From an uncultured Bacilli bacterium (GTDB lineage Bacteria; Bacillota_I; Bacilli_A; RFN20; CAG-826), in the NCBI GenBank assembly GCA_944369075.1, contig CALVXK010000008.1, positions 112 to 64,111 on the forward strand: a DNA stretch of 64,000 nucleotides. The letters are read 5' to 3'. Of this stretch, positions 20,587 through 37,936 are shown piece after piece; positions within the stretch are counted from its first letter, which is position 1; each line of letters opens with the position of its first letter. The notes under the pieces are model-generated. The model was not told the DNA's origin. It made no database searches and saw nothing but the letters and a program-made list of their open reading frames with translations. The position numbers were made by a program, and so were the translations under genes.

Positions 20587-20607
20587 ATTTTTAGGAGGAT
20601 TAATCAA

Positions 20608-20948: not shown

Positions 20949-21161
20949 AGGTAAACATGAAATTCGAGTTTTCCTAACTATTTATTGTTGTTGAAAGAAT
21001 TGCAGTTATTTTATCATAAAATTTATTTTACATATTAATGATGGTGGCACATTGAAAAGTCACCATTCAAACTATCTGTTATTTATCAAGGGGTGTTAGA
21101 GAAATTTAAAAGATTAAAGATATCAGTAGTATCTGTTAGCCAGAAAACTAAGGATTTTTTA

Positions 21162-21185
21162 TCTTTTGCAAACGTTTGCAAAAGA
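21162..21185. repeat. Perfect 24-bp palindrome TCTTTTGCAAAC/GTTTGCAAAAGA
   Basis: Read directly from the sequence. It lies in non-coding DNA between the intact and decayed copies of the small gene. Confidence 0.9.
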
Positions 21186-21464
21186 ATAATTTTTTTTTAA
21201 TTCTTCCTTGACCATAATTATATCCAAATTCAAATTTATCAGAATCATCTTTTCTATTTAATAATTTCTATTCTTTTCTCTTCCAATATAAGCCTTCATA
21301 TTAAAACCTTTGGATTTACAAGAGGTCTTATAATAAAACGTATTATAAATAAAGTTAGTTCACTTTCTTAAACAAATATACATAAAAATAAGTTTTTTGC
21401 TATTTTACATTTCAAGATATAATTTTTATAAGATAGAAAGTAAGTCTTCCCCAAAATACTGGCT

Positions 21465-21689
21465 TTGCGTAAAGAAAATTTTGCATCCAAAAAAGAATTA
21501 TGGGAGTTAGAGTTGGTAACATCGCAATTCCTAACGAAAAGTAAAAATGAATTTTTTGAGTTCCTATAATGAGGTTAATTTAAAATTTAAAGATGGTATT
21601 GTGAAACCAAAGCTTCATTAATCAGAAAGGCATTTCTTTCAAAAGTTGATGCAAAAATTGAACTTATTAATGGTTTAAAAAATGATTAA
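21465..21689 (+). pseudogene. Decayed duplicate of the 20608..20868 gene
   Basis: 'MGVRVGNIAIPNEK..NEF....VNLKFKDGI.KPK' parallels 'MGAGVGNIAILKDKGNEF...VNVKFKDGICETK'. Several stops and frameshifts are present. A terminator-like sequence is also duplicated (about 21735-21775). Confidence 0.7.
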
Positions 21690-21775
21690 TTACGTGGGAG
21701 TAACTTTTTGAAACAGAAGTTTTTGTTTCTTTAATAAACAATTTAAAGATCTTTATTGAAGATTTTTGTTTAGTT

Positions 21776-23184: not shown

Positions 23185-23186
23185 AG

Positions 23187-23230
23187 CGCAAAGTAGATTT
23201 ATGCGAAAATCCAGGCTATACGCAAAGTAA
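23187..23230. repeat. CGCAAAGTA words, 34 bp apart, with a related TGCGAAAAT between them
   Basis: Copies at 23187 and 23221. On the gene's sense strand they read TACTTTGCG, upstream of the frameshifted ATPase. Compare AACTTTTTGCAA upstream of paralog 3. Confidence 0.5.
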
Positions 23231-23351
23231 TTTATAGTATCAGTTAATTAAAAGACAAGGCTTAATAGTAAATTTTATATTTTTAAATTGTTCCATTTTA
23301 TGTCCTTAAGTAATTTTTATAATTAATATAAATATTTGGAGGCTAGATTAA

Positions 23352-25952
23352 ATGGATAAAAATTTTGTAAATTATCAAGAAAAAATAGAGAAAATAGCAG
23401 GTTTATGTAATGTCGACTTATCAATAACTAACATTAATGAAGAAGCAATATTATCATACATATTAAACGATAAAACATTTGATTTATATGGAATTTATAA
23501 TCATAATTTAAGCCGATTATATAAATTAATTAAGGAGTTTAAACCAAAAACAAAAGATGAATTTATTTCTATTTTAGCTATTAATGAATTAACTTTTTTT
23601 GGGAATAAAGATTCAAGTTACTTAATTGAAGTCTTTAATAATTACGGTTATCTTACTTTAAGTAAAGAAAATTTAGTTAATCTTTTAATTGGTTTCGAAA
23701 TAGATAAAGATGATGCTATGATGATTATTAATCAAGTACCACATCTATTTAAAAAAGATATATTTATATTAGAATCATATGTTGAAGATAAATTTCTTAT
23801 CAATCTAATTAAAAATTTAGAAGAAATAAAAAGTGAAGAGTATTTGTTAAATCTATATAAAGATATTATTACTTTAATGTATTTTAAGATGAACTATAGA
23901 AATGTTTTTAATAAAGTTATTTCTAAAGATTTAAATAGAGTTGAAATAAATTCACATTTTTATCATGAAGTAAGATCTTATGAAACACTTGAAAAATGTA
24001 TAGAATCAATAAAAGAAAGAGATAATATTGATGTTCTTGTTATTTGCAATGATTCGTATTTATATAATCTAGATATTTTAAGATGTATAAAAGCAAGATA
24101 CGGACTAAAAAAACTTATTCAAGGCATAGAACTTAATGTTAGAAGTGATAACACTCAAATTTATAAAGTTTCTTTTCTTCCTAGAACTAAATTAGGAGCA
24201 AGAAACCTCTATGAACTTATAAGTAAAGCTAAAATAATTAACGATAAGTTTTATGTAACTTTTGATCAAATTATTGAGTATCGAAAAGATATATTTATTG
24301 GTTCACCTTGTTTTGAAAGCGAACTATTTTATTTAGCTTTAAATAAAGATTATGAAACATTAAAAGAAAGAATTAATTTTTATGATTATATCGAAATTGA
24401 ACCTCTTTCAAACTATTCCTTATTAAATCTTCCTAAATTAGATTTAAATGAATTAAAAGAAATAGTAAATATAGTAATAAAAATAGGAGAAGAATCTAAA
24501 AAGATAATTGTTGGAACATCAGATCATTATTTTAAACTTGATGAGAGTAATATAGTTAAAGAAGTATTATCTAATTGTTTTAACGTTAACATTAAAGAAG
24601 ACAATGAATATAAAACGAGATACTTAAATACTAAAGAATTATGTGATTCTCTTTCTATATTTATTGAAGATAAAGAAAAACTAGATGAGTATATTTTAAT
24701 TAATCCTAATAAGTTAGTTTCTTTCATTGATGATAATAGTTTTAACTTTTTTCCTAGACCATATTCTTTAATTAAAATAAATAATTCTAAAGAGAGATTA
24801 AAAGAGATATGTGATTTAAAGATTAAAGAAAAATATAATCTAGAATTATATGAAAAGATAAAAGAAATAGTATTCAAAGAGATAGATACTTTAAATAATA
24901 AATATGATTTATGTTCTACATTACTTTATTATTATTCCTTCTTCAATAAATTAAGTGAAGAAGGAATAATATATCTAACTAATCAAAGTAATATTCTTTT
25001 TACTTATTATTTGCTTGGTATAAGTAATATTGATCCTTTAACTATATTTTCTTTAGAAGATAATGATTTATTTACTTACTATAATTTAAATCATTTAGAT
25101 GGAAAGTATAACATTGATATTAAAATAAGTGTAAATTCTAAATTTATCGATAAAGCATATAAAGTCTTAAAAGAAACATTTAACGATAATAAGATTATAA
25201 GATTAAAAGAAGATTATAATGATTTAAATTTATCTAAAATTAATGAATTCGTAAATTCGTTTATTATTGTTCCAAAAGATGTCAATATTTATGAGTTTAC
25301 TCCTTTAATAAATGAAGTTACTTGTTTTACTAATTGTTATTTAAAGTGGATTTTTCCTATAATTTCTTTTAAAACTTCTAAAATAATGGATGAAGCTAGT
25401 GATTTATTAAATAAGAATAACTTAATTCTTTCTAGCATTAATTTAAATGATAAAAAAGTTCTCTCTTTCTTTAATAGTGAAGATTTTTTAAATAATAAAA
25501 TAAAAGATAAGAAACTAAGAAGCTTAAATCTAGTAAATAATTTAGAGATAAAAGAAATATTAAAGTTAGTTAAAATAAATAGTTTCTCTGCTTTAGTAAG
25601 AGTTTATGGAATATTATTTAACTCTTCTTCTAGTAAGTATATAGATATATTAAAAAAGCGTTATTTAAATAATGGAGTTTTAAATATAAAGGATATTATT
25701 TCATCTAAAGAAGATTTATTTATTTTCTTGCTTAAGTTTATTAAGGACGCTGATTTGGCTAAAAAATTTACATTCGACATATACACAGGAAGTGGTAAAG
25801 AAGATAAAGGGATTTTACGTAAGCTTAATGTTCCTAAAGACTCTATTGAATATTTTATTAATATAGAATACCTTCTTGGAAAGTCAACTATCGTTCAGAA
25901 CTTAATAATTGTATTTATTTTTGTTTATTGTTCGTTTTTATGCCAACAATAG
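23352..25952 (+). CDS. PolC/DnaE (C-family polymerase alpha)-derived protein with degenerate catalytic motifs and a duplicated fingers module (predicted pseudo-polymerase)
   Basis: By-eye matches to E. coli DnaE. PHP start: 'RVEINSHFYHEVRSYE' vs 'FVHLRVHSDYS'. Palm: 'LTNQSNILFTYYLLGISNIDPL' vs '[24 protein letters not shown]', and 'GKYNIDIKIS' vs 'SMPDFDVDFC'. The fingers module occurs twice: 'FKPKTKDEFISILAI...MYFKMNYRNVF' at the N-terminus and 'VKINSFSALVRVYGI...' at the C-terminus. SD GGAGG upstream. Confidence 0.6.
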   Translation: MDKNFVNYQEKIEKIAGLCNVDLSITNINEEAILSYILNDKTFDLYGIYNHNLSRLYKLIKEFKPKTKDEFISILAINELTFFGNKDSSYLIEVFNNYGYLTLSKENLVNLLIGFEIDKDDAMMIINQVPHLFKKDIFILESYVEDKFLINLIKNLEEIKSEEYLLNLYKDIITLMYFKMNYRNVFNKVISKDLNRVEINSHFYHEVRSYETLEKCIESIKERDNIDVLVICNDSYLYNLDILRCIKARYGLKKLIQGIELNVRSDNTQIYKVSFLPRTKLGARNLYELISKAKIINDKFYVTFDQIIEYRKDIFIGSPCFESELFYLALNKDYETLKERINFYDYIEIEPLSNYSLLNLPKLDLNELKEIVNIVIKIGEESKKIIVGTSDHYFKLDESNIVKEVLSNCFNVNIKEDNEYKTRYLNTKELCDSLSIFIEDKEKLDEYILINPNKLVSFIDDNSFNFFPRPYSLIKINNSKERLKEICDLKIKEKYNLELYEKIKEIVFKEIDTLNNKYDLCSTLLYYYSFFNKLSEEGIIYLTNQSNILFTYYLLGISNIDPLTIFSLEDNDLFTYYNLNHLDGKYNIDIKISVNSKFIDKAYKVLKETFNDNKIIRLKEDYNDLNLSKINEFVNSFIIVPKDVNIYEFTPLINEVTCFTNCYLKWIFPIISFKTSKIMDEASDLLNKNNLILSSINLNDKKVLSFFNSEDFLNNKIKDKKLRSLNLVNNLEIKEILKLVKINSFSALVRVYGILFNSSSSKYIDILKKRYLNNGVLNIKDIISSKEDLFIFLLKFIKDADLAKKFTFDIYTGSGKEDKGILRKLNVPKDSIEYFINIEYLLGKSTIVQNLIIVFIFVYCSFLCQQ

Positions 25953-25983
25953 TACTTCATACTTTTAGTATTAAGGAGAATTT

Positions 25984-26496
25984 ATGGAAATTAGAAGTGA
26001 TAACTTTATAGATTATTATTCAATCTATGCTAAAGATATTAGGTATGACTTATATGATAATTTAGGTTTTACTGGAGATACAATTAATGGACTCCCTATT
26101 TTTAAAAGAATAGAACTAGGAAATAACATTGATTTTGTTAATAAAGGAACATTAGAACGATTAGAAATATTAACTGGAAATATTTATTCTTCTGAATGTA
26201 TAGCAATGAATTATTGAAATCCTTTATTTTGGTTTGGTTTAGATAAAGAAAATGATCGAATAATGGCTTTAAATTCAGGAATCTCTAGAGATGAAGATAT
26301 GTGGATTATTTATAAAAATGGAATTGTAAATTGTTTAACTGGAGAATATGTTGAAGGAGAATTTGTAGCACAAAAAAGAGAATCTTTTTCTTGTGTTATA
26401 AATAGAGTTCCTAGAAGCTATATTTCATCAACTACTAATTTTTGTAACAATGTTTCTATCTTGCTAGGTTTAATTATTGATTTATTATCTATATAA
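25984..26496 (+). pseudogene. 170-codon reading frame of unknown function interrupted by one in-frame TGA (26215-26217)
   Basis: ORFs 25984..26217 and 26263..26496 are in the same frame. There is an SD before 25984 and none before 26263. Reading TGA as Trp gives 'MNYWNPLFWFG'. Confidence 0.5.
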
Positions 26497-26505
26497 GGAG
26501 AAGTT

Positions 26506-27483
26506 ATGTTTACTAAGAAAGATTATGATAATTTATTAAAAGAAATTTATATTAAAGAAGAACTCGAAAAAAGAAATAAAGATGTTTCAAATGAATTTAG
26601 AAGTGGTAGATACTCTAATTATTTTAAAGATGAATTTTTAGATAAAAATGGTAGATTTTATATAGATTTAAATAACTACCAAAATGCTTATTCTTCTTAT
26701 TTAGAAGGAGGGGGAGAAGAATTAATAAGTAAAGGAGTAAGACCACCTAAACTTCTTTCAATTGGATCAAGTTCTAATTTTTGTTTCTATTCTCTAAGAA
26801 ACAAAAATTATTTAGATAAGTTAGGTTTTAATTTCTTTTTAAAAGGTGGTGATAAGTTACTTAATAACTCAAATACTTATGAAAAAGCATTAAAAATAGA
26901 AGAAGTAAATAAAAATAGTTATATTGATGCATTTATGGAAGGAGAAAAAGAATTATATTTCTTTGAATGTAAATGTCATGAGTATTTTGATAAGCATGAA
27001 TTTGACTTAAGTTTAACATATGGAAAGAAAGAGTTAATAAAAGAATTAAAAATAGATCAATGTAGTAGTGATCCAAAAGGTATAAATTTTAATATTAATC
27101 CATACACTTATTTTGAATTAGATAAACTTTATAAAGATAAAGGAAGTAATGTTGAAATTACAACTTACTTTTATATTAAACAACTTTTAACTCATTTAAT
27201 GGCAATTACTGATTATAAATCATCTAAAAAGAAGAATTTAATCTATTTTTACTCTTTTCCACCATTAAAATATATATTAAATAACTTAGATCTTAAATCT
27301 CATTTAGTTAATGTAGTTAAAGAGACTTATCATGTATTTAACTTTCTGGAAACTAAGATAGATTATTTAAAAAAGAATAATATTGAATTAAGTTTATTTA
27401 TTAAAATAGATGGTAGAAGTGAAGAAAGTGCATGTTCTAATAATGTTATTAATGGATATAGATTCTTAGAACTAATGAAGTAA
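26506..27483 (+). CDS. PD-(D/E)xK nuclease-like protein
   Basis: 'SIGSSSNFCFYSL', then 'SYIDAFMEGEKELYFFECKCHE' (D...ExK). SD AAGGAG upstream. By-eye call only. Confidence 0.45.
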   Translation: MFTKKDYDNLLKEIYIKEELEKRNKDVSNEFRSGRYSNYFKDEFLDKNGRFYIDLNNYQNAYSSYLEGGGEELISKGVRPPKLLSIGSSSNFCFYSLRNKNYLDKLGFNFFLKGGDKLLNNSNTYEKALKIEEVNKNSYIDAFMEGEKELYFFECKCHEYFDKHEFDLSLTYGKKELIKELKIDQCSSDPKGINFNINPYTYFELDKLYKDKGSNVEITTYFYIKQLLTHLMAITDYKSSKKKNLIYFYSFPPLKYILNNLDLKSHLVNVVKETYHVFNFLETKIDYLKKNNIELSLFIKIDGRSEESACSNNVINGYRFLELMK

Positions 27484-27484
27484 T

Positions 27485-28402
27485 ATGGCCAATAAATTAA
27501 GTAATAAATATGATGAAAGAATAAAGGAATTAACTAAATTAACTAATATTAATTTAAGTGATATTAAATTCTTTGATAATGAGATTATATCTTACATTAT
27601 CAAAGAATTTGATTATGCTTATTATCTTCCTTCATTACAAGGATGTTACTTTAATAACTTTAATGATTTATATAATCTAGTTAATTTAGTTAAACCTAAA
27701 AATATTAATGAATTTATATTAATTTTAAATTTAGTAAATTCTAAGTTTCATTCTAAGAAATTAATATTAAAAGATATTAAAGAATATGGGATAAATAGCA
27801 TTATTACTAGTAAACCTAAATTGCTTAGTTATTTAATTAAATCTAATAATGATTTAAATTATGATGAAGCTATAGAGTTAATAAATGATTTAGATAAATT
27901 AAAATTATCTATTTATGATTTTAATTTATCTAAATATCTTAAAGAAGAGATATTAAATATAAAGAATCTATCTACATTAAGTGATTCTGCTAAATTATTT
28001 AAAAACATATATTATCTAGCTCATTTTAAAATACATTATGAAGGTATATTCTTTAATACTTTAATAAAAGAAGAAGGTAGTTTTGTAGGTCCATTCTTTT
28101 ATATAGATTCTAAAGTTTATGCATATAAAGAAAAAGTAGAATCGTTTAATGTTAAATTACTATATTTTGATTCTAATATGGGACATATGTTATTTTTTAA
28201 TACTTTAAATAAATATGGAGAATATAGTTATTATCCTAGAGGGAGAGTATTATTTGATAATCTAAATAAGATTTACCTTATTTATATCGATAAATCTTTA
28301 AATAAAGCTAAGATAAAAGAAGAAATAATTAATGAATATAACTTAAAGAATAAGAAAGTTAAATTTTGTTATGATGAACATTATGTTACTCTTGATTATT
28401 AA
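27485..28402 (+). CDS. Protein with an N-terminal PolC/DnaE fingers-module (paralogous to the N-terminus of the 866-aa protein) and an unknown C-terminal domain
   Basis: 'VKPKNINEFILILNL' and 'IYYLAHFKIHYEGIFF' parallel 'FKPKTKDEFISILAI' and 'ITLMYFKMNYRNVF' (DnaE 'LQPDCFEDMIALVAL', 'LWLKAHYPAEF'). The start is 1 nt after the upstream stop. Confidence 0.55.
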   Translation: MANKLSNKYDERIKELTKLTNINLSDIKFFDNEIISYIIKEFDYAYYLPSLQGCYFNNFNDLYNLVNLVKPKNINEFILILNLVNSKFHSKKLILKDIKEYGINSIITSKPKLLSYLIKSNNDLNYDEAIELINDLDKLKLSIYDFNLSKYLKEEILNIKNLSTLSDSAKLFKNIYYLAHFKIHYEGIFFNTLIKEEGSFVGPFFYIDSKVYAYKEKVESFNVKLLYFDSNMGHMLFFNTLNKYGEYSYYPRGRVLFDNLNKIYLIYIDKSLNKAKIKEEIINEYNLKNKKVKFCYDEHYVTLDY

Positions 28403-29285
28403 GTTTATCATTAACTAAATTTACTATTAAATTGGAGTATTTATAAACTATTTCGTTATTTCTAAGTGCTACATCTTTTAGATTATTAATTTGTTCTTTA
28501 GTTAATTCAATAATCTTATATCTGTCATTATCTTCATTAAATGTAAAACATCTAAATTTATATTTTTCGATTAATTCATAAGCATAACGATGACCAAATT
28601 TATATTGATCTAGCGGAACAATTACTCCTAATGCTAAAGAATCTATTTTGTAGTCTTTAAAATATTTTCTAGATTCTTCCAAATAATATCCAGAATTAAA
28701 GATATCTAACCAATGCGCATAAGTTAATATTTCACTTACTGCTCTAAATAAATTTTCTTTAGATGAAGGTATTTTATACTCATTTAATATTAATTGATTA
28801 ATGTCTCTATCAAGAGTAATTAAATCAACATTAGATTTACGGCGATATCTAGAACTAATAGGAGCTTCAAAATATAAAGGTTTAATTGATTTATTTTTAA
28901 AACTAAAAAGTAAGTTCTTTTCATTTAATTCTTTATTATTTACTAAATATATACATTGTTGTGGTTCATTCTTTGGATTTACCTCATATTTGTTACTATG
29001 AGTGTTTGGAATACAATTTTCTAATGTTATGGGTAAAGGCTTAATTTCATCAAATGAATGTTTATTGTTTAGGAAAAATGTTTGGTAAACATATTCTGAA
29101 AAGAGATTTTGTAGGATTGAATAATTGGCTGGCTTGTGTTTTGAAGGATCAACTTGATTTTTACTTAATAAATCATAAATTTCTTCAATTGTCGCATTTT
29201 TAACTGAGTTTAATTCAGATCCTTTGTTAAAAATAGCATCTATTCGGTTTATTATATTTTTTTCGTAATCAATCTTTTTAGCCAT
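28386..29285 (-). CDS. PD-(D/E)xK nuclease-like protein
   Basis: 'SNVDLITLDRDINQLILNEYKIPSS...AVSEILTYA' fits the D...ExK...Q..Y pattern. The 3' end overlaps the convergent ORF by 17 nt. Confidence 0.45.
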   Translation of the reverse strand: MAKKIDYEKNIINRIDAIFNKGSELNSVKNATIEEIYDLLSKNQVDPSKHKPANYSILQNLFSEYVYQTFFLNNKHSFDEIKPLPITLENCIPNTHSNKYEVNPKNEPQQCIYLVNNKELNEKNLLFSFKNKSIKPLYFEAPISSRYRRKSNVDLITLDRDINQLILNEYKIPSSKENLFRAVSEILTYAHWLDIFNSGYYLEESRKYFKDYKIDSLALGVIVPLDQYKFGHRYAYELIEKYKFRCFTFNEDNDRYKIIELTKEQINNLKDVALRNNEIVYKYSNLIVNLVNDKLNNQE

Positions 29286-29362
29286 AATAGTATTAACGAT
29301 TTAAAATTTATGTTTATTTTAACATTAAAACTTATAAAATAAAAGAAAGGAATAAAAGTTAA

Positions 29363-30268
29363 GTGTCAAAGTTATCTCAAGAATTAGAAATACTCTATTA
29401 TTTAAACAAAAACTATGATTCTAGAAGATTTATTGGTCTAGATGAAATTTTAGATTATCTAGATTTAGATAAGAAATGTGCTAGACAAGTAAGAAGATAT
29501 ATCGATGATTTAAATCTAGCTAAATTTTATATTGATACTAAAAGAGGACTTAATGGAGGATATCGTTTATTCGATAAATTAGAACCATCAAGTTTACTTG
29601 TTCCTAATATTGCTCTAGCATTAGTATTATCTTCTAAACATAATAAAAAGTTAGGGGAATATTTAAAAGATATACCTAATATCATTAAATATAATATTAT
29701 TGAAGGTGATAACGAAATAACTAGTAATACCTTAAACAAATTAATTGAAGTCGTTGCTTCAATTAATGATAAAGTAGGTATATCTTTTAAATATAAAGAT
29801 ATAGAAGATAATATAGATATTAATCCATATAAAGTTTTATATACTAATCATACTTATTATTTAATTGGATTAGATTTAAAAGATAATAAAGTTAAAGTAT
29901 ATGATGTAAATTATATAGATAATATTAAGTATATAGAAAAGTTTAATCTAGATAATATCTTATTAAATAAAATAGAAGATAGACTAAATAATTATGGTAT
30001 TAAGTTTTATCTTGATCAAGATAAAACTTATCTATTAAGAGTTAAATGTAAAAATAAGAATGTATTAGATAAATTTATTAAGTATTATGAAAATAAAGGT
30101 AAAGTAGATGGACTTATATTTGAAGTAAAAGGAAATAGTGAAAACGAATTATTTTATCCTTTATTAAGAATATCATCTAAAGATTATGTTATTTTAAATA
30201 ATAAGTTTAAAAAAGCTTTTACTTCTTATTTAGAAGCTTATTTAAATAATATAAAGAAAAATAAGTAA
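29363..30268 (+). CDS. HTH-WYL domain transcriptional regulator (BrxR/CapW-like architecture)
   Basis: N-terminal wHTH 'LDEILDYLDLDKKCARQVRRYIDDL'. WYL-type core 'INPYKVLYTNHTYYLIGLDLKDNKVKVYDVNYIDNIKYIEKF'. GTG start with an SD. Divergent from 28386..29285. Confidence 0.75.
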   Translation: MSKLSQELEILYYLNKNYDSRRFIGLDEILDYLDLDKKCARQVRRYIDDLNLAKFYIDTKRGLNGGYRLFDKLEPSSLLVPNIALALVLSSKHNKKLGEYLKDIPNIIKYNIIEGDNEITSNTLNKLIEVVASINDKVGISFKYKDIEDNIDINPYKVLYTNHTYYLIGLDLKDNKVKVYDVNYIDNIKYIEKFNLDNILLNKIEDRLNNYGIKFYLDQDKTYLLRVKCKNKNVLDKFIKYYENKGKVDGLIFEVKGNSENELFYPLLRISSKDYVILNNKFKKAFTSYLEAYLNNIKKNK

Positions 30269-30556
30269 TTAAATTATTTAACAATTTATCTCTTATTTTG
30301 TAGATTTATCAATAATTATCGATTTGATTAGTTTCCACTTGAGTAAATGTTTTTAGAAAAATTAAGAATATATAGCTTAATTTTTTATGTATTGTCATAT
30401 GCTCTAAGTACTAGACTTATAATTTTATTCATATATGCTTTTACTTTATTTCTTTATCCAGTATTAAAAATCGATGATTTAATAAAATAAGAAAAATAAT
30501 CTTTAGTAATATAATCTAGATAAAAACATTAAATTAAGGTAACATTTATAGTACTT

Positions 30557-30790
30557 ATGGAAAATGAAGTTAAAAGAAAAAAGAAGAATGTAGAAAATAC
30601 ATATCAAGATGAAATTACTAAACCTAAAAGAAGAACTACTCAAAAGAAAGTAGAATATCAAACTATTAGGAAAGAAAAAGCTATTAACTATAAGAAGAAC
30701 TTTAAGGTATTCTTAACTTTTGTAATTTTATCTATATTATTACTAATATATATCTTATATTTAGTAGTAATGGCATTTATACAAATATAA
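30557..30790 (+). CDS. Small Lys-rich protein with a C-terminal TM anchor
   Basis: 77-aa ORF followed by a good terminator. No homology evidence. Confidence 0.45.
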   Translation: MENEVKRKKKNVENTYQDEITKPKRRTTQKKVEYQTIRKEKAINYKKNFKVFLTFVILSILLLIYILYLVVMAFIQI

Positions 30791-30825
30791 ATAATTAAAT
30801 AAATAATACAAACATATAACTTAGT

Positions 30826-30852
30826 AAAGACTTATTCGTAATAAGTCTTTTT
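30826..30852 (+). terminator. Intrinsic terminator
   Basis: aaagacttat-tcgta-ataagtcttt perfect 10-bp stem running into a T-run. Confidence 0.7.
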
Positions 30853-31023
30853 AAGTTTATATTAATTTATGTTATTACTTTTCTTTAATTTAATGTATCT
30901 AAACTAAGTTATTAATAAGTTTTAATAACAACCATTCCTAGTGTTTTTGAGACAAAAAAACATGAAAATAGTCGTAATAAAAGGACAAAAAGTAGTCCCA
31001 AACCTCTAAATTTAACAAAAACT

Positions 31024-31047
31024 TTGCGGGGTGGGGGGGGTTATATT
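31024..31047 (+). promoter_or_regulatory. 24-nt G-tract element TTGCGG-GGTGGGGGGGGT-TATATT (G4TG8 at 31028-31040)
   Basis: Second copy of the element at 20563-20586. It lies 53 nt upstream of the first gene of the SipW-type operon. Confidence 0.6.
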
Positions 31048-31100
31048 GTAGACTATTGGCAATAAAAAATTTTTGTGTAAAGAATTAGGGAGATTTTTAT

Positions 31101-31739
31101 ATGCTTAAAAGAAAATTATTAATGACAATTTTACCTGTATTATCAGCAGCAGTTATTGCAGGAGCTGGATTTAGTGCATGGGTATTTGATCATACAAATT
31201 CCGATGATGCTAATATGACTATTAATACTAACGTTGAGGATGCTTTTGATTACAGTATTAGTGTTTTAAAAACTACTGAGCCTGATAAGTTAAGTTTAGA
31301 TCAAGACACACCTGATTCTGTAGCAAGTGGAATTAGTTTTGTCAATGGCACAAAAGATACAGATTTAGTCTTACAAGTCGAACAATCCGGTGGTACCGCT
31401 AACTTTACATCATTAGATTTTGAAATAACAATTACATTAGATGATAGCTTAAATACTTATTTAGATTTTAATACATCTAGCATAGGCTCTATTTACAAAG
31501 ACAATGGCGAATGGGCTTCACAAGGTGAAACGACAGGTAAAACAATTACATTAACATTATCAGGTGTAACTTTTTCTGGTAATCAATCTTATAAATTTAC
31601 TTTAAATAATGGTAATCATAATTATTTACTTGATTACGCTGATGGTCAAAAACCTCAAAGATATACTGATTGGCAAGCTATGAACACTGCTTTAGCAAAT
31701 TCTTTAATGACTATTGATATCTCTGTTACTGCTAATTAA
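31101..31739 (+). CDS. Secreted TasA/camelysin-like candidate fibre subunit with SipW-cognate-like signal peptide
   Basis: '...VIAGAGFSAWVFDHTNS' resembles the TasA-type 'GGGTWAAFND' signal end. 212 aa. SD GGGAG upstream. Paralogous N-terminus to 35704..36378. Confidence 0.6.
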   Translation: MLKRKLLMTILPVLSAAVIAGAGFSAWVFDHTNSDDANMTINTNVEDAFDYSISVLKTTEPDKLSLDQDTPDSVASGISFVNGTKDTDLVLQVEQSGGTANFTSLDFEITITLDDSLNTYLDFNTSSIGSIYKDNGEWASQGETTGKTITLTLSGVTFSGNQSYKFTLNNGNHNYLLDYADGQKPQRYTDWQAMNTALANSLMTIDISVTAN

Positions 31740-31778
31740 TAGATTCTCCTCATCTATTCTTATTCTTGCTTTGGTCTA

Positions 31779-31818
31779 ATTAATATGGATAAAATTCTAC
31801 CCCTTTATCCATATTAAT
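31779..31818 (+). promoter_or_regulatory. Intercistronic 15-bp perfect hairpin (attenuator/mRNA-stabiliser candidate)
   Basis: attaatatggataaa-N10-tttatccatattaat between the first and second operon genes. No U-run follows. Confidence 0.6.
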
Positions 31819-31863
31819 AGATATATATTATAAATAAATATTATTTAATAGGTTTTTTGTTAT

Positions 31864-34746
31864 ATGTTTAAAAGTAATAAACGAAGAATATTATCTATAT
31901 TTATTATGGTACTAGCTTTAATAGTATTAGTACCTTCTTTTGCGTTATCATATTTTTATTTTAATACACCTTCTATTAATGACCCTACCAATATCGATAA
32001 TGGTAGTGTCAATGGTAATAATGGTATAGATGATATAAAAGAAAACTATACCGGTAATAAAGATGATAGTTCAAAAGAATATACTATCTATTTCTTCCCA
32101 TCAGTACTTTATACTCAATACTATTTGAATCAATTAACTAATTCAACAACATTAGGAATTACACCATTAGATGGAGTAAATCCTGAAGATTGGTTTGGAT
32201 ATAATGAATTAACATATAATGAAGATACAGATGGTTTCACTTCTAATATTTACTTCAACGGAACAAATTATTTATACAATAACGTTGCTACTGATAGAAT
32301 GGGTGATTTAGGTTATATAAATTTTATAACTGACACCTACGATAAACATAGAGATAGTGAAATAGTAGAAGGAACTCATAATGGTGAGACAAGAAAAGTT
32401 ATAGAAGCTGAACATATAGATAAAAACCCAGATAAATTTAGCATTAAAAGTCAAGATTATAATCTATTGTCTCAAACATATTTGCCTTTTAGCGAGGGCG
32501 ATTTCGAAAGCGGAATAGCTAGCAATGGTATGGATGATTATAGGTATTCTTGGGACGCTTATAATAGAGATTTTGGAGATCCTTTAGATGTAGTAGAAAA
32601 ACAGTATTTTGACTCTTCTTTTTTATTTGAAAATGGTGGAGACTATGAAAACATGCCTAAATTGGATGGGCAGTTTAATTATGACAATATATATAAAATG
32701 GATAGATTTGGTTTTTGGCCAAATAACAGAGTCAATATTGAACCTAACAAAGACTTTAAATTGATTAAGCATTATGAAAATGTCAAATACAGATATGAAG
32801 GAATCATTTTTCATCCTACTTACGAAGGACCTGTTACAGTAGAGATTACTCAACATTTTTCTGTAAATCAAAACCAAGTAGCTGATTTAAATTTAGGGAG
32901 ATATTTACCTTATAAATTAAAGGTTGACGACTATTTGCCTATTGATTGGTATGAAAATTTAATAGATTTTCCTGAAAGCGATATGGGAGATATCAATAAA
33001 TATGGAAGTGATCACAATAATGCTCCTAATCCTTTTTATAATTATTCTTTTGCTGGATGGGGATATTTCAATGAAAAAAACGAATTCTCTGTTGCTTTAA
33101 ATGCTGGCGATAATGTTATCGAGAAAGTATTTACTTCTGAAAACATTAGCAACACTTTTGATATTATGTCCAATTTAGAACAATATGCGGATGATAATGG
33201 TGTGATTAGATTATTTCCAATATTTTCTAATGGTAAAAAATATTCTACTAATCCAGGTAGCACAGCTAATGATCAATATGCATTTAGATTAAATTTTAAC
33301 GATAAGCCTACAAGCGAAAGTGTAAGTTATGAGTACAATATTGATAATTATTTTTTACGAAACGGTACATCTCAAAATTCGAGTATAAGTTTAACTAGAA
33401 TTGGGAATTTTAGATATGATGTCAGTTATAATGGTACTAGCAAATACATTAATGTTGAGGTAACGACAGCTAATAACTATATTCTCTCAGATGACACTTG
33501 GGAAATAAGTATGTATGGTCGAAATTTCGAAAAAGTTTTGCGAACTAACTATGGACTTTATAACATATATATTTTTGCTTATAACGGGCAAGACGCTAAT
33601 GTATTAAACGAAGCGAATATAGAACGAACTATTAGAGATTTTTATCCAACGAAAAATCTAGGCAATATTCATTATAATATTGATGAAGTTAACACATATG
33701 GAGACTCTCTTAAATATATAATTGGTTATGAGAGAATAAGTGATGTAAAGTTTATAGAAGGATTAAACGAGGGTGCTCCCTTTGATAGCCAAATTTCAGA
33801 GGACAAATACAATAATTCCCAATCTATGCTTAAGCAAAGTAATAAAGTTTTCCTTGCTAATGATGTTATCGATAATGATTCATGTTTTACTATTGGAGAA
33901 GGTATTGAAGCAGGACATAAGGTAATTTCTGACTTTAATTTTTCAAAAATTACTTACGATCTATATAGTACCCCAATTAATAATGATAATATCTATTTAA
34001 TTAAAAACATTGATTTTACAAACTATAGTAGTTTAGATGAATCGATTTTCCAAATTAAATTAAATATAAATTCAAATACTTCTGAACAATTTGCATTTAG
34101 TGATCCTTATGCCGATGGAAGTAGTAATACGGTAATTAAATTTAAAAACGAAAAATTTGATGCCCTTATTTATAATCCTAGTGGTGATTTAACTGATGAA
34201 AATGTGTTTATACCAGCTTCTTATTATTTTGAACAGGTAACAGATAATTTAGGTGGATATGGTTATAAACCTAGACACACTGTCTATCTAGGAATGTATG
34301 ATTTTATATTATATTTTGGTGGATCTAACTATGAATTATATTGTTATAGACATTCGAATATGACTGTTTCAATTTATAGTAAAGATCAACAAGATAATGA
34401 TAGAGATGGGTATGTTGATCCTATTCAAAATGAATTGATTTGGTCAAGAAAAACATTTATTGGTTCTTATTTAGAAGATAGTAATAGCGGTAATGTAGGT
34501 TCTATCGTTGGACAAACATTAAAAGATACTATTAATGGTTACCTCATTAATAATGGTGCAGATAAATCAAAACCTTATTACATCAGGGACCATGTAACTG
34601 GGTTAGATTTATTTAGATTTACATTTAATAATGAAACAAATTCATGGGATGTTCAAAAGTTATTAAATGATTTTAGAATTCGTAAAAATTATGTTTTCTA
34701 TATTACTAATGAAGAACCATTAGTAAATCAAAGTAGTGGTAATTAG
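31864..34746 (+). CDS. Large (960 aa) extracytoplasmic protein with N-terminal SipW-like signal/anchor, function unknown
   Basis: 'LIVLVPSFALSYFYFNTPS' N-terminus. Asn/Tyr/Asp-rich, with no recognisable catalytic motif. Internal antisense ORFs are judged spurious. The SD is weak. Confidence 0.6.
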   Translation: MFKSNKRRILSIFIMVLALIVLVPSFALSYFYFNTPSINDPTNIDNGSVNGNNGIDDIKENYTGNKDDSSKEYTIYFFPSVLYTQYYLNQLTNSTTLGITPLDGVNPEDWFGYNELTYNEDTDGFTSNIYFNGTNYLYNNVATDRMGDLGYINFITDTYDKHRDSEIVEGTHNGETRKVIEAEHIDKNPDKFSIKSQDYNLLSQTYLPFSEGDFESGIASNGMDDYRYSWDAYNRDFGDPLDVVEKQYFDSSFLFENGGDYENMPKLDGQFNYDNIYKMDRFGFWPNNRVNIEPNKDFKLIKHYENVKYRYEGIIFHPTYEGPVTVEITQHFSVNQNQVADLNLGRYLPYKLKVDDYLPIDWYENLIDFPESDMGDINKYGSDHNNAPNPFYNYSFAGWGYFNEKNEFSVALNAGDNVIEKVFTSENISNTFDIMSNLEQYADDNGVIRLFPIFSNGKKYSTNPGSTANDQYAFRLNFNDKPTSESVSYEYNIDNYFLRNGTSQNSSISLTRIGNFRYDVSYNGTSKYINVEVTTANNYILSDDTWEISMYGRNFEKVLRTNYGLYNIYIFAYNGQDANVLNEANIERTIRDFYPTKNLGNIHYNIDEVNTYGDSLKYIIGYERISDVKFIEGLNEGAPFDSQISEDKYNNSQSMLKQSNKVFLANDVIDNDSCFTIGEGIEAGHKVISDFNFSKITYDLYSTPINNDNIYLIKNIDFTNYSSLDESIFQIKLNINSNTSEQFAFSDPYADGSSNTVIKFKNEKFDALIYNPSGDLTDENVFIPASYYFEQVTDNLGGYGYKPRHTVYLGMYDFILYFGGSNYELYCYRHSNMTVSIYSKDQQDNDRDGYVDPIQNELIWSRKTFIGSYLEDSNSGNVGSIVGQTLKDTINGYLINNGADKSKPYYIRDHVTGLDLFRFTFNNETNSWDVQKLLNDFRIRKNYVFYITNEEPLVNQSSGN

Positions 34747-34769
34747 TTTAGTTAAAGGAGGAAATAAGA

Positions 34770-35711
34770 ATGGGCGGACAAGATAGATTAGGTATTGTTG
34801 CATTAGTTGTATCAATATTTGTTATTCTGGGTTTAGTAATTGTTTTTTGTTTCTTATTCTTTCTTTATTCTTTTTATAAGAAAAAACAAATTAAATATGG
34901 CTTTGAAGATAAAGAATTAAATGATGAAATTACTTCGACTTTATATAAAACTAATAAGAAAAATTTAAGTAGGAATGAAAATCTAATTACATATAAAGAT
35001 GTAATTGCTAGAGAAAAAAGTATTACTTCAAAATTACATATCGTCATGGATGTAGTTAGTGGGGTAATTATTGCTTTTTTACTTGCTATATTTATTACAG
35101 GTTTAACTTATAGAATTAATAACGATAACTTATTTATTGGCAATACGACTTATATGACAATTCTTACTTCTTCAATGGAAGAAAAGAATGAAGATAATGA
35201 TTATTTACTTACATATGATTTAAATGATCAAATAACTCAATATTCTTTAATTGGTATAGATAAAATTAATAGTGAAGATGACATTGAGTTATACGATATT
35301 TTAGCTTATAAACATGACGATATCGTTATCGTTCATAGAGTTGTAGAAATAAAAGAAAATGATAAAGGTGAAACAATTTATCGTTTACAAGGAGATTCGA
35401 ATCCATCTTCTTTAAGTTACGAAAAAGAATTAACATTTGATAATTTTATTGGTAAATATAATGGATATCAAAATTATGGTTTAGGCGTAACTTTAACTTA
35501 CATTAAATCAAATATTGGTATCATTGCAGTTTTAGGTGCTGCTATTTTCTTATTTTTAGCAACGTATGCTGAAGAAATGATTAATAATGAATATAAAACT
35601 AGACTCTTATTACTTGCAGATGATAATACATTAAATAAAGATTTAAAGTTAATTATTAAACTTAAAGAATCTCATATTTTAGAGAGTAAGGAAGAAAATA
35701 TAAATGAATAA
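34770..35711 (+). CDS. sipW: SipW-type (S26B, ER/archaeal-type) signal peptidase I with extended N- and C-termini
   Basis: 'TSSMEE' (Ser box, cf. SGSMEP), 'IVIVHRVVEI' (His box, cf. THRI) and 'LQGDSNP' (cf. KGDNN). TM helices lie before and after the catalytic domain. SD GGAGG upstream. Confidence 0.75.
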   Translation: MGGQDRLGIVALVVSIFVILGLVIVFCFLFFLYSFYKKKQIKYGFEDKELNDEITSTLYKTNKKNLSRNENLITYKDVIAREKSITSKLHIVMDVVSGVIIAFLLAIFITGLTYRINNDNLFIGNTTYMTILTSSMEEKNEDNDYLLTYDLNDQITQYSLIGIDKINSEDDIELYDILAYKHDDIVIVHRVVEIKENDKGETIYRLQGDSNPSSLSYEKELTFDNFIGKYNGYQNYGLGVTLTYIKSNIGIIAVLGAAIFLFLATYAEEMINNEYKTRLLLLADDNTLNKDLKLIIKLKESHILESKEENINE

Positions 35712-36378
35712 AATTCGTAAAATTTCATTAATATTTAGTGTTTTATCTTTAATTTCTTCTATGTCTATTATAGGAGTTGGTTTTTCGATTTGGGTTTTTG
35801 ATGAAGGTGAAAAGACAATTAAAAGTAACGTTGTAGTTAGCGTTTCTGATACTTATTCTTTTGGAGAAGTCCATGTTTATGCACCTAATACATATTACTT
35901 AGAACCACCTTCTGATAAACTTGCAACTTATGGTGGATTAGTATTTTATACTCGTGATAGTGATCACGTTAATGAAGGACATGAGTTAGATTATACTTTA
36001 GGAAGTAGTGTTGCTTTGGCCATTAAATCTAATTCAAGCAATCAAGAAACGCTAGATCCAGCGATTATTGATGATATAGTAAAAAATCTTAAATGTACTT
36101 TAAGTATTTCTTTTACAAAAGATAGTGCATTAATGAAATACTTTAATATTAAAGTGCCTACGCACGAATTTTCTTTCTCATACGATAGTGGCAATAGATA
36201 CTCTGAAATAGATTTCGTATCAAAAGATGCTTTCAATTTAAACGGCAATTTTGAATATAAACAAGGTGCTTTAACTTCTATAGATGGAGATAATAATGGA
36301 ATTATTGATCCTAATGAATGGAACAATGAGGAAAATAAAGGCTCAGTTATCTTAAGTTTTGAGTTTTCGGGTTTATAG
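35704..36378 (+). CDS. Secreted TasA/camelysin-like candidate subunit 2 with SipW-cognate-like signal peptide
   Basis: 'IIGVGFSIWVFDEGEK...VVVSVSDTYSF' parallels 'AGAGFSAWVFDHTNS...NTNVEDAFDYS'. Overlaps the sipW stop by 8 nt. Confidence 0.6.
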   Translation: MNKIRKISLIFSVLSLISSMSIIGVGFSIWVFDEGEKTIKSNVVVSVSDTYSFGEVHVYAPNTYYLEPPSDKLATYGGLVFYTRDSDHVNEGHELDYTLGSSVALAIKSNSSNQETLDPAIIDDIVKNLKCTLSISFTKDSALMKYFNIKVPTHEFSFSYDSGNRYSEIDFVSKDAFNLNGNFEYKQGALTSIDGDNNGIIDPNEWNNEENKGSVILSFEFSGL

Positions 36379-36452
36379 TTATTAATTTGAAAAACAAGAA
36401 TATATTTACGTTTTAATTTGCAAAAATACAAGTTTGCCCAGATGTTAATTCT

Positions 36453-36544
36453 CGAAAAACCTAACTTTTTGCAAATTTAAATGTTTTAGAAAACTAACTT
36501 TTTGCAATTTTCGTTGTTTTAGAAACCTAACTTTTTGCAAATTT
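36453..36544 (+). repeat. Three direct ~25-nt repeats (core CTAACTTTTTGCAA), 34/33-bp period
   Basis: Copies at 36453-36478, 36487-36511 and 36520-36544, directly upstream of ATPase paralog 3. Confidence 0.9.
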
Positions 36545-36592
36545 CGATTTATTTAATCTGTTTTTCTGTTAAAATATAAGAGGGGTGTGCTA

Positions 36593-37936
36593 ATGTTTAA
36601 ACGAAAGATATATTCTCACTTATTAAAATGGAAAAACGAAACTCAAGGTAGAACAGCGCTTTTGATTGAAGGAGCTAGGCGTGTTGGCAAAACTAAAATA
36701 GCCGAAACATTTGGTAAAAATGAATTTAAGAATTATAAATTAATCGATTTTTCTATTCAATCAGAAAATGTTATTAATAGTTTCAATTATTTAAACGATT
36801 TAGAAAAGTTTTTTGAGTATTTATTTTTAGCATTAGGAATAAATCCCTTACCAAAAGGTAGTTTATTAATATTTGATGAAGTTCAATTTTGTCCTAAAGC
36901 AAGACAAGCAATAAAAACTTTAGTTGCTGACGGACGTTATTATTATTTAGAAACTGGATCCTTAGTTTCAATAAAAGAAAATACACAAGATATTTTAATT
37001 CCCTCTGAAGAAGAGTCTATAGAGATGTATCCAATGGATTTTGAGGAATATTTATGGGCTTGTGGATTAGAGTTTGAGGCTAATGCTATCTTGAAACATT
37101 TTAAAGATAGAAATCCATTTCCTAATGATATGCATAATTTGTTGATGCAAAATTTTCGAACATATCTTGCTATAGGTGGCATGCCAAAAGTTGTTGATAC
37201 GTACCTAACAACTCATAGTTTTTTTGCTGCTGATAAAGAAAAAAGAATGATTATTAAACTTTATGAGGAAGATTTGAGAAAAATTGATAATAATTTTAAA
37301 ACGATTTGCTATCTTGTTTGGAAACAAATGCCTGCAATGCTTTCAAAACATTCAACAAGATTTATCGTTTCTTCAACTAACGAAAGGTCTGATTCAGTAT
37401 TATTCACTAATACTATGGAAAAATTGATTGAATCAAAAATGGTTGTTGCCGTATACAAATGTACTGACCCAAGCGGCGGTTTCGCTTTAACAAAAGATTT
37501 AAGTTCTTTTAAACTATATTTTAATGACACCGGTTTATTTACAAGTATTATTTATCCAGACACCAAAAATGATTCGCAAGATCTTTACCAACGTTTAGTT
37601 TTTGATAAACTCAAAACAAATTTAGGAATGTTATTTGAAAATGCCTGCGCCCAAATTCTTCTCGCTAATTCTTTTGAGCCATATTATTATTCATGGAGGG
37701 AAGAAGCTGAAAACGTAAAAAAGAATTATGAAATAGATTTTATAGTTTCTAAAAATGGGAAGACGATTCCTTTTGAAGTAAAATCAAGAAATACATCTTG
37801 CATAGAATCTCTTGAAGCTTTTAGAAGAAAATTTGTTAAAAAAATTGGTGAAAAATATATTGTTCACATAAAACAATTATCCTACGGAGACAATTTGACT
37901 TACCTTCCTTATTATATGCTTTTTTGTGTTAGATAA
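36593..37936 (+). CDS. AAA+ ATPase, AAA_14/DUF4143 family (paralog 3)
   Basis: Walker A 'GARRVGKTK', Walker B 'LLIFDEVQFCPKARQAIKTLV', C-terminal 'YEIDFIV...FEVKS'. ATG at 36593 is preferred, 7 nt after GAGGGG. The N-terminus is close to that of paralog 2. Confidence 0.8.
   Translation: MFKRKIYSHLLKWKNETQGRTALLIEGARRVGKTKIAETFGKNEFKNYKLIDFSIQSENVINSFNYLNDLEKFFEYLFLALGINPLPKGSLLIFDEVQFCPKARQAIKTLVADGRYYYLETGSLVSIKENTQDILIPSEEESIEMYPMDFEEYLWACGLEFEANAILKHFKDRNPFPNDMHNLLMQNFRTYLAIGGMPKVVDTYLTTHSFFAADKEKRMIIKLYEEDLRKIDNNFKTICYLVWKQMPAMLSKHSTRFIVSSTNERSDSVLFTNTMEKLIESKMVVAVYKCTDPSGGFALTKDLSSFKLYFNDTGLFTSIIYPDTKNDSQDLYQRLVFDKLKTNLGMLFENACAQILLANSFEPYYYSWREEAENVKKNYEIDFIVSKNGKTIPFEVKSRNTSCIESLEAFRRKFVKKIGEKYIVHIKQLSYGDNLTYLPYYMLFCVR

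Follow-up and report, generated by a model that had tools for sequence, protein, structure and literature searches.

Introduction

The sipW-bsaA-bsaB-bsaC operon of Clostridium perfringens encodes BsaA, which forms donor-strand oligomers with its N-terminal disordered loop as the donor strand (PMC11580942). SipW is needed for export in this system, and the oligomers that BsaA forms have their anchor in the membrane, not in the cell wall (PMC7395162, PMC11580942). The TasA fibre of Bacillus subtilis forms by N-terminal strand donation, without a chaperone or ATPase (PMC9674648, PMC10151520). Small beta-rich subunits, signal peptidase I-type cleavage and extracellular assembly through N-terminal strand donation are also found in the archaeal bundling pili AbpA/AbpB (PMC9245690) and in cannulae (10.1101/2024.12.30.630787), and AbpB, the larger multi-domain partner, was proposed to be an initiator or adhesin (PMC9245690). 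Here we report a four-gene operon at positions 31101-36378 of a 64,000-nucleotide stretch of DNA from an uncultured Bacilli bacterium (contig CALVXK010000008.1; the whole stretch is hereafter termed the window). The system follows a known logic, namely a private S26B signal peptidase with cognate exported subunits, built from new protein families. The operon probably encodes a surface fibre or an adhesin system, so far undescribed and antigenically variable, and the chance that we are dealing with a new type of surface filament is substantial.

Two sets of protein families are also relevant to this comparison. The NCBIfam/TIGRFAMs entries TIGR04088-04090 are the SipW-cognate signal peptide and the "alternate signal-mediated exported protein" families. 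The Vlp and Vsa lipoproteins of Mycoplasma have a conserved promoter and signal peptide followed by a hypervariable mature part, with a homopolymeric tract of varying length in the promoter region; signal peptidase II cleaves them, and their variation arises from repeats inside a single genome. No earlier description of the present system was found in the searchable literature.

Results and Discussion

Organization of the operon

The operon consists of four tightly packed open reading frames (ORFs), all on the plus strand, in a window with a G+C content of about 24%. The coding features are as follows.

31101..31739, + strand: gene of the major small subunit, 212 aa (ORF)
31161..31187, + strand: codons 21-29 of the major-subunit gene, encoding the signal motif GAGFSAWVF (from the logo of 164 family members)
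31864..34746, + strand: gene of the large component, 960 aa (ORF)
34770..35711, + strand: gene of the S26B signal peptidase, 313 aa (ORF)
35704..36378, + strand: gene of the minor small subunit, 224 aa (ORF; paralogue of the major subunit)

The start of the minor-subunit gene overlaps the stop of the peptidase gene by 8 nt, suggesting translational coupling of the two. TGA serves as the stop of 2 of the 38 long ORFs in the window, and the organism therefore follows genetic code 11. The surrounding genes are chromosomal housekeeping genes (aspS, pcrA, ligA, gatAB), and a tblastn search with the peptidase gave no match in phage or plasmid collections, so that a prophage or plasmid origin was rejected. 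Related contigs derive mostly from human-gut metagenomes. The Rfam scan revealed no known RNA element within the operon. A first-pass annotation, made by a model from the letters of this DNA, had described four ORFs, peptidase boxes, three N-terminal motifs, a 15-bp hairpin and an upstream G-tract, and every one of these lies where it had been placed. The relatives sampled for comparison comprise syntenic strains, operons whose peptidase is 32-58% identical, 39 metagenome loci collected with the peptidase profile and two loci reached from the substrate side.

The signal peptidase

The 313-aa protein contains the boxes SSMEE (residues 134-138), VHRVV (residues 188-192) and QGDSNP (residues 207-212). 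It has three hydrophobic segments, at about residues 8-35, 88-114 and 245-268, giving a layout of a first transmembrane helix (TM1), a basic lysine-rich linker of about 50 aa, TM2, the catalytic domain with Ser135, His189 and Asp209, TM3 and a tail of about 45 aa. The part from TM2 through the catalytic domain to TM3 reproduces the layout of SipW, and TM1 and the linker are additions. The extra N-terminal helix and linker had already been pointed out in the first-pass annotation, which put the C-terminal tail at about 55 aa, somewhat too long. TM1 is among the best-conserved parts of the family of 26 homologues.

The residues Ser135, Met136, His189, Arg190, Gly208, Asp209 and Asn211 are invariant in the 26 homologues, and Ser135, His189 and Asp209, together with Met136, are also invariant in six more distant relatives, down to 28% identity. 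Thus the presence of the boxes and the invariant catalytic Ser, His and Asp bear out the initial call of an S26B/SipW-type peptidase, Ser135 and His189 being kept in all 26 homologues and the six further relatives. The family models match the protein below their cut-offs, with an E-value of 4.5e-9 and 36.4 bits for TIGR02228 (sigpep_I_arch; cut-off 51.85) and an E-value of 2.2e-8 and 33.9 bits for the SipW model NF046067 (cut-off 190), and the Pfam scan gave no S24/S26 match. We therefore place it in a divergent subfamily. The precomputed peptidase Pfam domain is likewise absent in all 80 peptidase homologues.

A profile built from the 26 homologues matches human SEC11C (E 2.8e-8) and SEC11A (E 8.4e-7) in a region spanning the ivHRv and GDxN boxes. 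Comparison with the MEROPS description of S26B revealed a Ser nucleophile in the S-M box, a His in the H-R box rather than the Lys of S26A, the Asp of the G-D-x-N box, an N-terminal anchor ahead of the catalytic domain and a C-terminal transmembrane helix, with a score below the curated cut-off of the family model. Based on the SEC11 profile match and the invariant catalytic residues, the 313-aa protein is, judged from its sequence, a divergent S26B (SipW/Sec11/archaeal-type) signal peptidase with intact catalytic residues.

In one lineage (P0061; L015, 8001-9251), the peptidase ORF of 397-416 aa runs on into an N-terminus resembling that of the next small subunit (…MTRKMTKLITILYAFIVVVTLVGAGFCSWRF…), which is either a gene fusion or a frameshift or assembly artefact.

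A signal motif linked to the peptidase

The strings GAGFSAWVFDHT, GVGFSIWVFDEG and PSFALSYFYFNT are present at the N-termini of the three substrates. The conserved core of the motif is G-x-[G/A]|[F/L/Y]-S-x-[W/F]-x-F, in which the bar marks the predicted cleavage site, and its commonest form is GFSAW[Y/H/V]F[G/N/S/D]. The logo of 164 major-type small proteins reads V-G-[S/A/T]-G | F-[S/A]-A-W-[Y/H/V]-F, with Gly at -3 (98%) and -1 (98%), Phe at +1 (95%), Ser at +2 (83%), Ala at +3 (87%), Trp at +4 (99%) and Phe at +6 (100%). The 39 large proteins have Gly or Ala at -1 in 99% and Ser at +2 in 89% of the cases, an aromatic residue at +4, and Phe or Leu at +6. Three inspected loci (L045, L035 and L029) of a clade with a G+C content of about 43% carry the variants GFAAWVI, GFASWLI and GFSSWII. 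The motif had at first been read as a conserved WVFD next to the peptidase; the V and the D of this string are variable, and the part that is conserved, and that does co-occur with the peptidase clade, is GxG|FSxWxF.

The peptidase gene is flanked by genes for proteins that begin with a basic stretch, followed by a hydrophobic helix and then the motif, in all sampled relatives, except for cases at contig ends. Such motif ORFs were found beside it in the syntenic strains and in 13 of the 14 low-GC metagenome loci. Among same-strand ORFs at distances of up to 4.5 kb from the peptidase, the motif follows a hydrophobic stretch in 59 of 164, compared with none of 194 ORFs elsewhere. This count covers the window and 28 fetched loci with a recognised peptidase pattern; 25 of the 53 loci then fetched, including the whole clade at about 43% GC, were left out as their peptidase pattern was not recognised. 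In the DNA examined, the motif was found beside this peptidase clade over a GC range of 24-46% and nowhere else. The linkage also holds in the reverse direction, as the other three components (a peptidase homologue, a large protein and a minor subunit) were found next to both substrate-family members taken from the profile search, one of which belongs to a lineage of 46% GC. The gene order differs among lineages (small-large-peptidase-small, small-peptidase-small-large or small-small-large-peptidase) with constant membership, and the four components in shuffled order were seen in six loci (L002, L004, L005, L022, L025 and L055). Therefore, the peptidase looks dedicated to the neighbouring proteins that share the special signal motif, as was suggested initially, the linkage of 59/164 versus 0/194 being reciprocal from the substrate side.

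The signal peptides of the substrates are conserved far beyond the needs of a generic Sec signal. Cleavage is predicted at G23|F24 in the 212-aa protein, A27|L28 in the 960-aa protein and G26|F27 in the 224-aa protein, because the G/A|F/L/Y junction is the sole position that meets the (-3, -1) rule in all three substrate classes. Residue -1 is Gly or Ala in at least 98% of the major and large classes and residue -3 is small or aliphatic in all substrate classes, which lends indirect support to the predicted processing of these signal peptides by the 313-aa peptidase. TasA-style cleavage after GFSA was rejected, as it would put Ile, Leu, Val, Lys or Tyr at -1 in the minor and large classes.

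Other export routes were considered for the substrates. A class III or type IV-pilin signal was rejected, since the G|F-S motif comes after the hydrophobic stretch and no prepilin peptidase or ATPase was found; lipoproteins were rejected for the lack of a Cys and a lipobox, and a sortase pilus for the lack of an LPXTG motif and a sortase. None of the three substrates has a C-terminal anchor or LPXTG motif. The NCBIfam scan gave no match to the signal-peptide model TIGR04088, or to the other models of TIGR04088-04090, for the three substrates or for 88 members of the small-subunit family.

The small subunits

Residues 1-23 of the 212-aa protein constitute the putative signal peptide, leaving FSAWVF as the predicted mature N-terminus. 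A word-indexed search found 21 close homologues, in which the first 29 residues are invariant and the remainder is 38-78% identical. A hidden Markov model (HMM) search of 1.84 billion representatives extended the family to 508 clusters at E<=1e-3, 195 of them at E<=1e-10, with full-length matches; the clusters are defined at 50% identity. Nearly all of the 146 newly listed members start with M-x-K-R-K...L-P...V-G-S-G-F-S-A-W-Y-F. No Pfam or NCBIfam match was found in any of the 88 sampled family members, nor any meaningful Pfam, NCBIfam or PADLOC match for the three substrates of the window, and a Pfam scan of six further substrates from related loci was equally empty. No source records a name for any homologue.

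Alignment of the small-subunit family with the family of the 224-aa protein by hhalign gave a probability of 99.6% and an E-value of 5.5e-25 over 207 columns. By this profile comparison the 224-aa protein is a full-length paralogue of the 212-aa protein, in agreement with the proposed composition of two small paralogous subunits and one very large component. In one clade (L020, 9056-10441; L021; L023; L024; L055, 7908-9242), the minor subunit encoded downstream of the peptidase is about twice as long, at 444-465 aa, and the large protein exceeds 1100 aa, indicating that the family tolerates domain insertions.

The AlphaFold2 (AF2) model of the 212-aa protein, calculated from a 21-sequence alignment, shows a beta-sandwich with two helices at residues 50-212, with a predicted local distance difference test (pLDDT) score of about 90. 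Residues 1-46 are unstructured in the model (pLDDT <50); about 25 of them form the N-terminal segment of the mature protein, which still carries the conserved motifs FSAWxF and VxVT[D/E], a picture suggestive of a donor strand. A Foldseek search of the model against the PDB gave nothing at E<=1e-3, with TasA (5OF1, 8AUR) and AbpA (7UEG) outside the top 50, and the small-subunit profile had no match among PDB sequences, TasA chains included.

The first-pass annotation had taken the small proteins to be TasA-like. The TasA model PF12389 (Peptidase_M73) matched neither the window proteins (threshold E<=1) nor the 88 family members (threshold E<=0.01), whereas B. subtilis TasA as a positive control scored 2.4e-37; the mature part of this TasA sequence, residues 28-261, had been verified against 8AUR. 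When the 88-sequence profile was compared to B. subtilis TasA by hhalign, only 33 columns of the signal peptide were aligned, at a probability of 30%, with GSGFSAW-F placed against GGGT--WAAF of TasA. The TasA-like reading thus finds no support, in homology or in fold, from Peptidase_M73, TIGR04088, hhalign or Foldseek. As the sequence, profile and Foldseek tests for TasA all fail, the substrates are, by these comparisons, new families outside the recognisable TasA family.

The large protein

The 960-aa protein carries the motif SFA|LSYFYF in its N-terminal signal. The small-subunit profile aligns with it in the N-terminal signal region only (49 columns, 85% probability). None of its 58 homologues has a Pfam domain, and scanning of the 960-aa protein and four large homologues revealed no Pfam or NCBIfam domain, including a von Willebrand factor A (vWA) domain like that of BsaC. 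The AF2 model has a pLDDT of 73.6 and a predicted template modelling (pTM) score of 0.73, and Foldseek found no match for it in the PDB (best E 0.54) or in BFVD (best E 0.02, TM-score <0.1). The protein is a candidate tip adhesin or anchor.

Strain-level variation

The most striking property of the locus, which the first-pass annotation did not mention, is its hypervariability between strains. In two strains (L006 and L008), aspS, the 77-aa protein encoded upstream of the operon, the peptidase and the downstream genes are 90-99% identical to those of the window, and the peptidase identity between strains is 96-99%. Against these two strains the major subunit is only 39-42% identical, the large protein 39-40% and the minor subunit 62-67%; over the near-identical strains compared, the large protein ranges from 36 to 40% and the minor subunit from 60 to 67%. 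At the nucleotide level the locus is a mosaic, in which blocks of about 92-100% identity alternate with blocks of 20-60% identity over the mature parts; the boundaries are sharp, with 96-100% on one side and 20-60% on the other. The first conserved block comprises the upstream region and the first ~90 nt of the major gene, corresponding exactly to the signal peptide and motif; the second comprises the hairpin spacer and the first ~100 nt of the large gene; and the third comprises the whole peptidase gene and the start of the minor gene. No silent copies were found in the window. Pilins, flagellins, variable surface antigens and other exposed structures displayed in abundance show a mosaic of this kind, their alleles being exchanged by recombination that is anchored in conserved flanks, and we propose that the exposed parts are under strong diversifying selection.

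Expression signals

Three non-coding features accompany the operon.

31024..31054, + strand: promoter-like TTGCGG-N19-TAGACT with the G-rich tract GGGGTGGGGGGGG in its spacer (consensus match; candidate phase-variable promoter)
31779..31818, + strand: perfect 15-bp inverted repeat with a 10-nt loop, between the major and large genes
36408..36484, + strand: imperfect 35-nt inverted repeat, 74% complementary, just 3' of the last gene

The -35-like TTGCGG is located at 31024-31029, the G-tract at 31028-31040 and the -10-like TAGACT at 31049-31054. The G-tract is one of only two G/C runs of at least 7 nt in the 64 kb. The arrangement of TTGCGG, G-tract and ATTGTA, with TAAAAT as -10, is kept where the other upstream DNA is only 40-55% identical. 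The tract differs among strains, reading G4TG8 (window), G4TG5, G9, G3TTG4, G4TG4 or being disrupted, and the spacers are 19 nt (window), 17, 16, 17, 17 and 17 nt. As in contingency loci, the length of the homopolymeric tract thus varies among related strains (G8 in the window; G5, G9, G4 or disrupted in others). This polymorphism fits a slipped-strand phase-variable promoter, of which the window allele would have an over-long spacer.

Strong ribosome-binding sites precede the major gene (AGGGAG) and the peptidase gene (AAGGAGG), and that of the large gene is weak. The arms of the hairpin (31779-31793 and 31804-31818) are complementary at 15 of 15 positions, and the RNA folds with -17.7 kcal/mol (z = -3.9 versus shuffled sequences). 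Its stem core ATATGGATAAA/TTTATCCATAT is kept in four related loci (L001, L006, L008 and L012), in L008 despite a differing loop and flanks. Hairpin and G-tract, both listed in the first-pass annotation, are therefore real and conserved in position across strains. The hairpin could be a partial attenuator, a 3' stabiliser of the major-subunit mRNA or a protein-binding palindrome, and the initial idea that it allows over-production of the major subunit is a reasonable candidate explanation.

The imperfect repeat at 36408-36484 possibly marks where the operon ends, or else an edge of the insertion next to it. CTAACTTTTTGCAA(A)TTT occurs in three direct copies, at about 36461, 36494 and 36527, with 33-nt spacing, and once in inverted form near 36413. 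These copies (region 36408-36545) sit between the end of the operon and the downstream PDC-S01 gene, and could be operator sites or an insertion scar.

Proposed mechanism

On balance, we lean towards a chromosomal four-gene module in which the private S26B peptidase processes three co-encoded Sec substrates to build a surface polymer or adhesin; the architecture matches those of sipW-bsaABC and tapA-sipW-tasA. In such a module, the three pre-proteins would insert into the membrane via Sec through their unusually conserved signal peptides, and the peptidase would cut after the Gly or Ala at -1, with its extra conserved TM1 perhaps serving as the docking site of the conserved signal helix. The N-terminus laid bare by the cut would be an aromatic hexapeptide, behind which lies a flexible stretch of about 20 residues. 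The abundant 212-aa subunit may then self-assemble extracellularly into a polymer, the likeliest route being that the N-terminal segment of one subunit inserts into the next subunit's beta-sandwich, in the manner of donor-strand filaments that need no chaperone. The 224-aa paralogue, presumably coupled to the translation of the peptidase and less variable, may be a minor subunit, a base or a nucleator, with the 960-aa protein as a possible adhesin or anchor. The exposed parts would be swapped between strains as cassettes, anchored on the conserved signal-peptide, intergenic and peptidase blocks, and the variable G-tract in the promoter-like spacer may switch expression on and off. A more specific version, which we consider less likely than not, is that this is an unrecognised pilus class of uncultured low-GC human-gut Bacilli, with new beta-sandwich subunits, a 100-kDa tip or anchor of unknown fold, chaperone- and ATPase-free assembly, a three-TM S26B peptidase, cassette variation and poly-G switching.

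Several observations weigh against these proposals. The best PDB matches of the 212-aa model are generic beta-sandwich domains of the adhesin, cohesin and integrin type, CLIPPER among them, at E>=5e-3, and none ties the model to a known filament fold. The AF2 model of the 960-aa protein puts the motif at the end of a long helix, which would also fit an uncleaved membrane anchor. The promoter is purely a consensus match, and a second promoter-like site is present downstream, at 31056-31085. No rapid switching of the G-tract was seen: the only further sample whose major subunit is identical also shares the tract length of the window. Finally, the hairpin is not a canonical terminator, as no T-run or U-tail follows it.

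Alternative interpretations

The small subunits might be genuine but extremely diverged TasA/BsaA (Peptidase_M73) proteins, and the operon a distant member of the tapA-sipW-tasA or sipW-bsa group. Equal operon logic and component count and an S26B peptidase (PMC11580942) speak for this, the signal peptides do align in hhalign, and the kinship of archaeal AbpA with TasA is itself detectable only by the most sensitive methods (PMC9245690). Nevertheless, we consider it unlikely, because PF12389 and TIGR04088 are silent for the window proteins and 88 members while the TasA control reaches 2.4e-37, the hhalign alignment stops at the signal peptide (30%), the PDB profile search returned no TasA chain, and Foldseek of a domain with a pLDDT of about 90 placed neither 5OF1, 8AUR nor 7UEG in its top 50, with no hit at E<=1e-3. 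The products might instead coat the cell as single surface proteins or adhesins that vary antigenically, akin in function to the Mycoplasma Vlp/Vsa antigens, form no filament and are held at the membrane by the aromatic N-terminus or an uncleaved signal helix. This would explain a conserved 5' region and signal peptide in front of hypervariable mature parts, as well as the polymorphic G-tract and the lack of a C-terminal anchor or LPXTG motif in the three proteins. The AF2 model places the motif of the 960-aa protein within a transmembrane helix, and aromatic residues as in FSAWYF are typical at the membrane interface. Yet the near-invariant Gly or Ala at -1 and the invariant catalytic residues argue for removal of the helix, a trio of major, minor and large proteins kept through changes of gene order is typical of polymer systems, and a role in a monomer is hard to see for the conserved unstructured N-terminal segment; such a coat seems improbable to us.

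The peptidase could also be the general signal peptidase of a reduced genome, in which case its adjacency to the substrates would be incidental or merely co-regulatory. Reduced Bacilli and Mollicutes often have no recognisable LepB, and the 64-kb window, which covers little of the genome, shows no motif of the LepB type. This explanation is very unlikely in view of the reciprocal linkage, which spans 24-46% GC with shuffled order and constant membership, the 8-nt overlap with the minor-subunit gene, the absence of the motif from all 194 other ORFs examined, and signal peptides conserved beyond the need of generic Sec export. Hypervariability of the large protein behind a conserved N-terminus, and the variable defence-type genes flanking the locus, might suggest a polymorphic secreted toxin or competition system with the 960-aa protein as the variable effector. 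We regard this as extremely improbable, as no toxin, immunity or secretion-ATPase domain was found by Pfam, NCBIfam or PADLOC, the variation extends over the whole mature protein instead of a C-terminal module, and the small abundant paralogous subunits would be left unexplained. A dedicated surface polymer or adhesin module thus remains the interpretation that we prefer.

Genomic neighbourhood

A strain-variable island of about 10 kb occupies positions 20572-30400 of the window. In two related loci (L006 and L012), aspS (window 19130-20509) directly adjoins the gene of the 77-aa protein (30557-30790), whereas extra genes intervene in the window and in L001. The only other G/C run of at least 7 nt in the window, a G9 run at 20572-20580, lies at the left edge of the island. 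Within the island, an 866-aa protein (23352-25952) has about 260 residues resembling PolC's exonuclease region (E 2.7e-31) and no further annotation, and a WYL-domain regulator is encoded at 29363-30268 on the plus strand. Two PDC-S01 candidate defence ATPases (AAA_14 and DUF4143) flank the operon, one at 21776-22804 on the minus strand, which is N-terminally truncated, and one at 36587-37936 on the plus strand, which is intact. The latter gene is absent from four related loci (L001, L006, L008 and L012), and the operon therefore sits between variable defence-type insertions.

The 77-aa protein is conserved and lysine-rich with a C-terminal transmembrane helix, and its gene is followed by a hairpin with a T-run (arms 30814-30836 and 30840-30862, the whole unit covering 30557-30862). 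In this species the gene is the upstream neighbour of the operon, which it is not in more distantly related operons; it is probably a separate transcription unit. In a related species (L002), an insertion sequence-type transposase (DDE_Tnp_1) is found immediately upstream of the operon, and a HipA-like kinase pair and two collagen-repeat proteins are found downstream (1403-2587, 11132-15113). Elsewhere in the window, a thiamine pyrophosphate (TPP) riboswitch (RF00059, 55.4 bits) at 7432-7546 is the only Rfam family reaching its gathering score, and positions 52436-57342 encode tandem fused ABC ATPase-permeases of 693 and 940 aa with ATPase domains similar to those of MacB and bacteriocin exporters.

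Implications

To our knowledge, almost nothing is known about attachment, immune detection and phage recognition of these Bacilli. If our proposal is true, the operon would provide a major surface structure for widespread uncultured human-gut Bacilli, and the substrate family would represent more than 500 clusters with no Pfam or NCBIfam model or solved relative. The principle of a SipW-type peptidase that is private and has a signal-peptide dialect to itself would then extend beyond TasA-type proteins. The presence of GxGFSxWxF after a hydrophobic helix beside a three-TM S26B enzyme is a signature usable for annotation. The contrast between about 40% and 96-99% identity puts the locus among the most strongly diversifying of these genomes, and makes it a natural marker for strain typing and for selection by host and phage.

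Comparison with known systems

The operon resembles sipW-bsaABC in having four components, of which two are small paralogous subunits, one major and one minor, and the others an S26B peptidase and a large secreted protein. However, BsaA and BsaB have remote TasA homology, whereas none was detected for the window subunits, and the vWA domain of BsaC has no counterpart in the 960-aa protein, for which neither a known domain nor a known fold was found. The window operon also differs from bsa in its distinct signal motif and in the extra conserved TM1 and linker of its peptidase, and the hypervariability and G-tract have not been reported for the bsa operon.

Similar to tapA-sipW-tasA of B. subtilis, a dedicated S26B peptidase is co-encoded with substrates sharing related N-termini (PMC9674648, PMC10151520). 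The signal-peptide ends are alike, GGGTWA|AFND in TasA and GAG|FSAWVFD in the window, with the predicted cut at a different position relative to the aromatic residues. In contrast to TasA, which is a PF12389 jelly-roll, the window proteins fail the sequence, profile and Foldseek tests. TapA and TasA are not paralogues, unlike the 212-aa and 224-aa proteins here, and B. subtilis has no large third substrate. Processing of the archaeal filaments is left to the general peptidase, there being no dedicated gene; AbpA is homologous to TasA, and no kinship between these filaments and the window family was detected.

The TIGR04088-04090 families provide another case of a SipW-like peptidase having its own class of signal peptide on unrelated neighbouring substrates, from which the window motif GxGFSxWxF is distinct. 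The Mycoplasma Vlp/Vsa systems share with the window locus the conserved 5' region and signal peptide, the variable mature part and the strain-variable tract. Unlike Vlp/Vsa, the window system has no lipobox, employs a private S26B peptidase and varies by allelic cassettes between strains.

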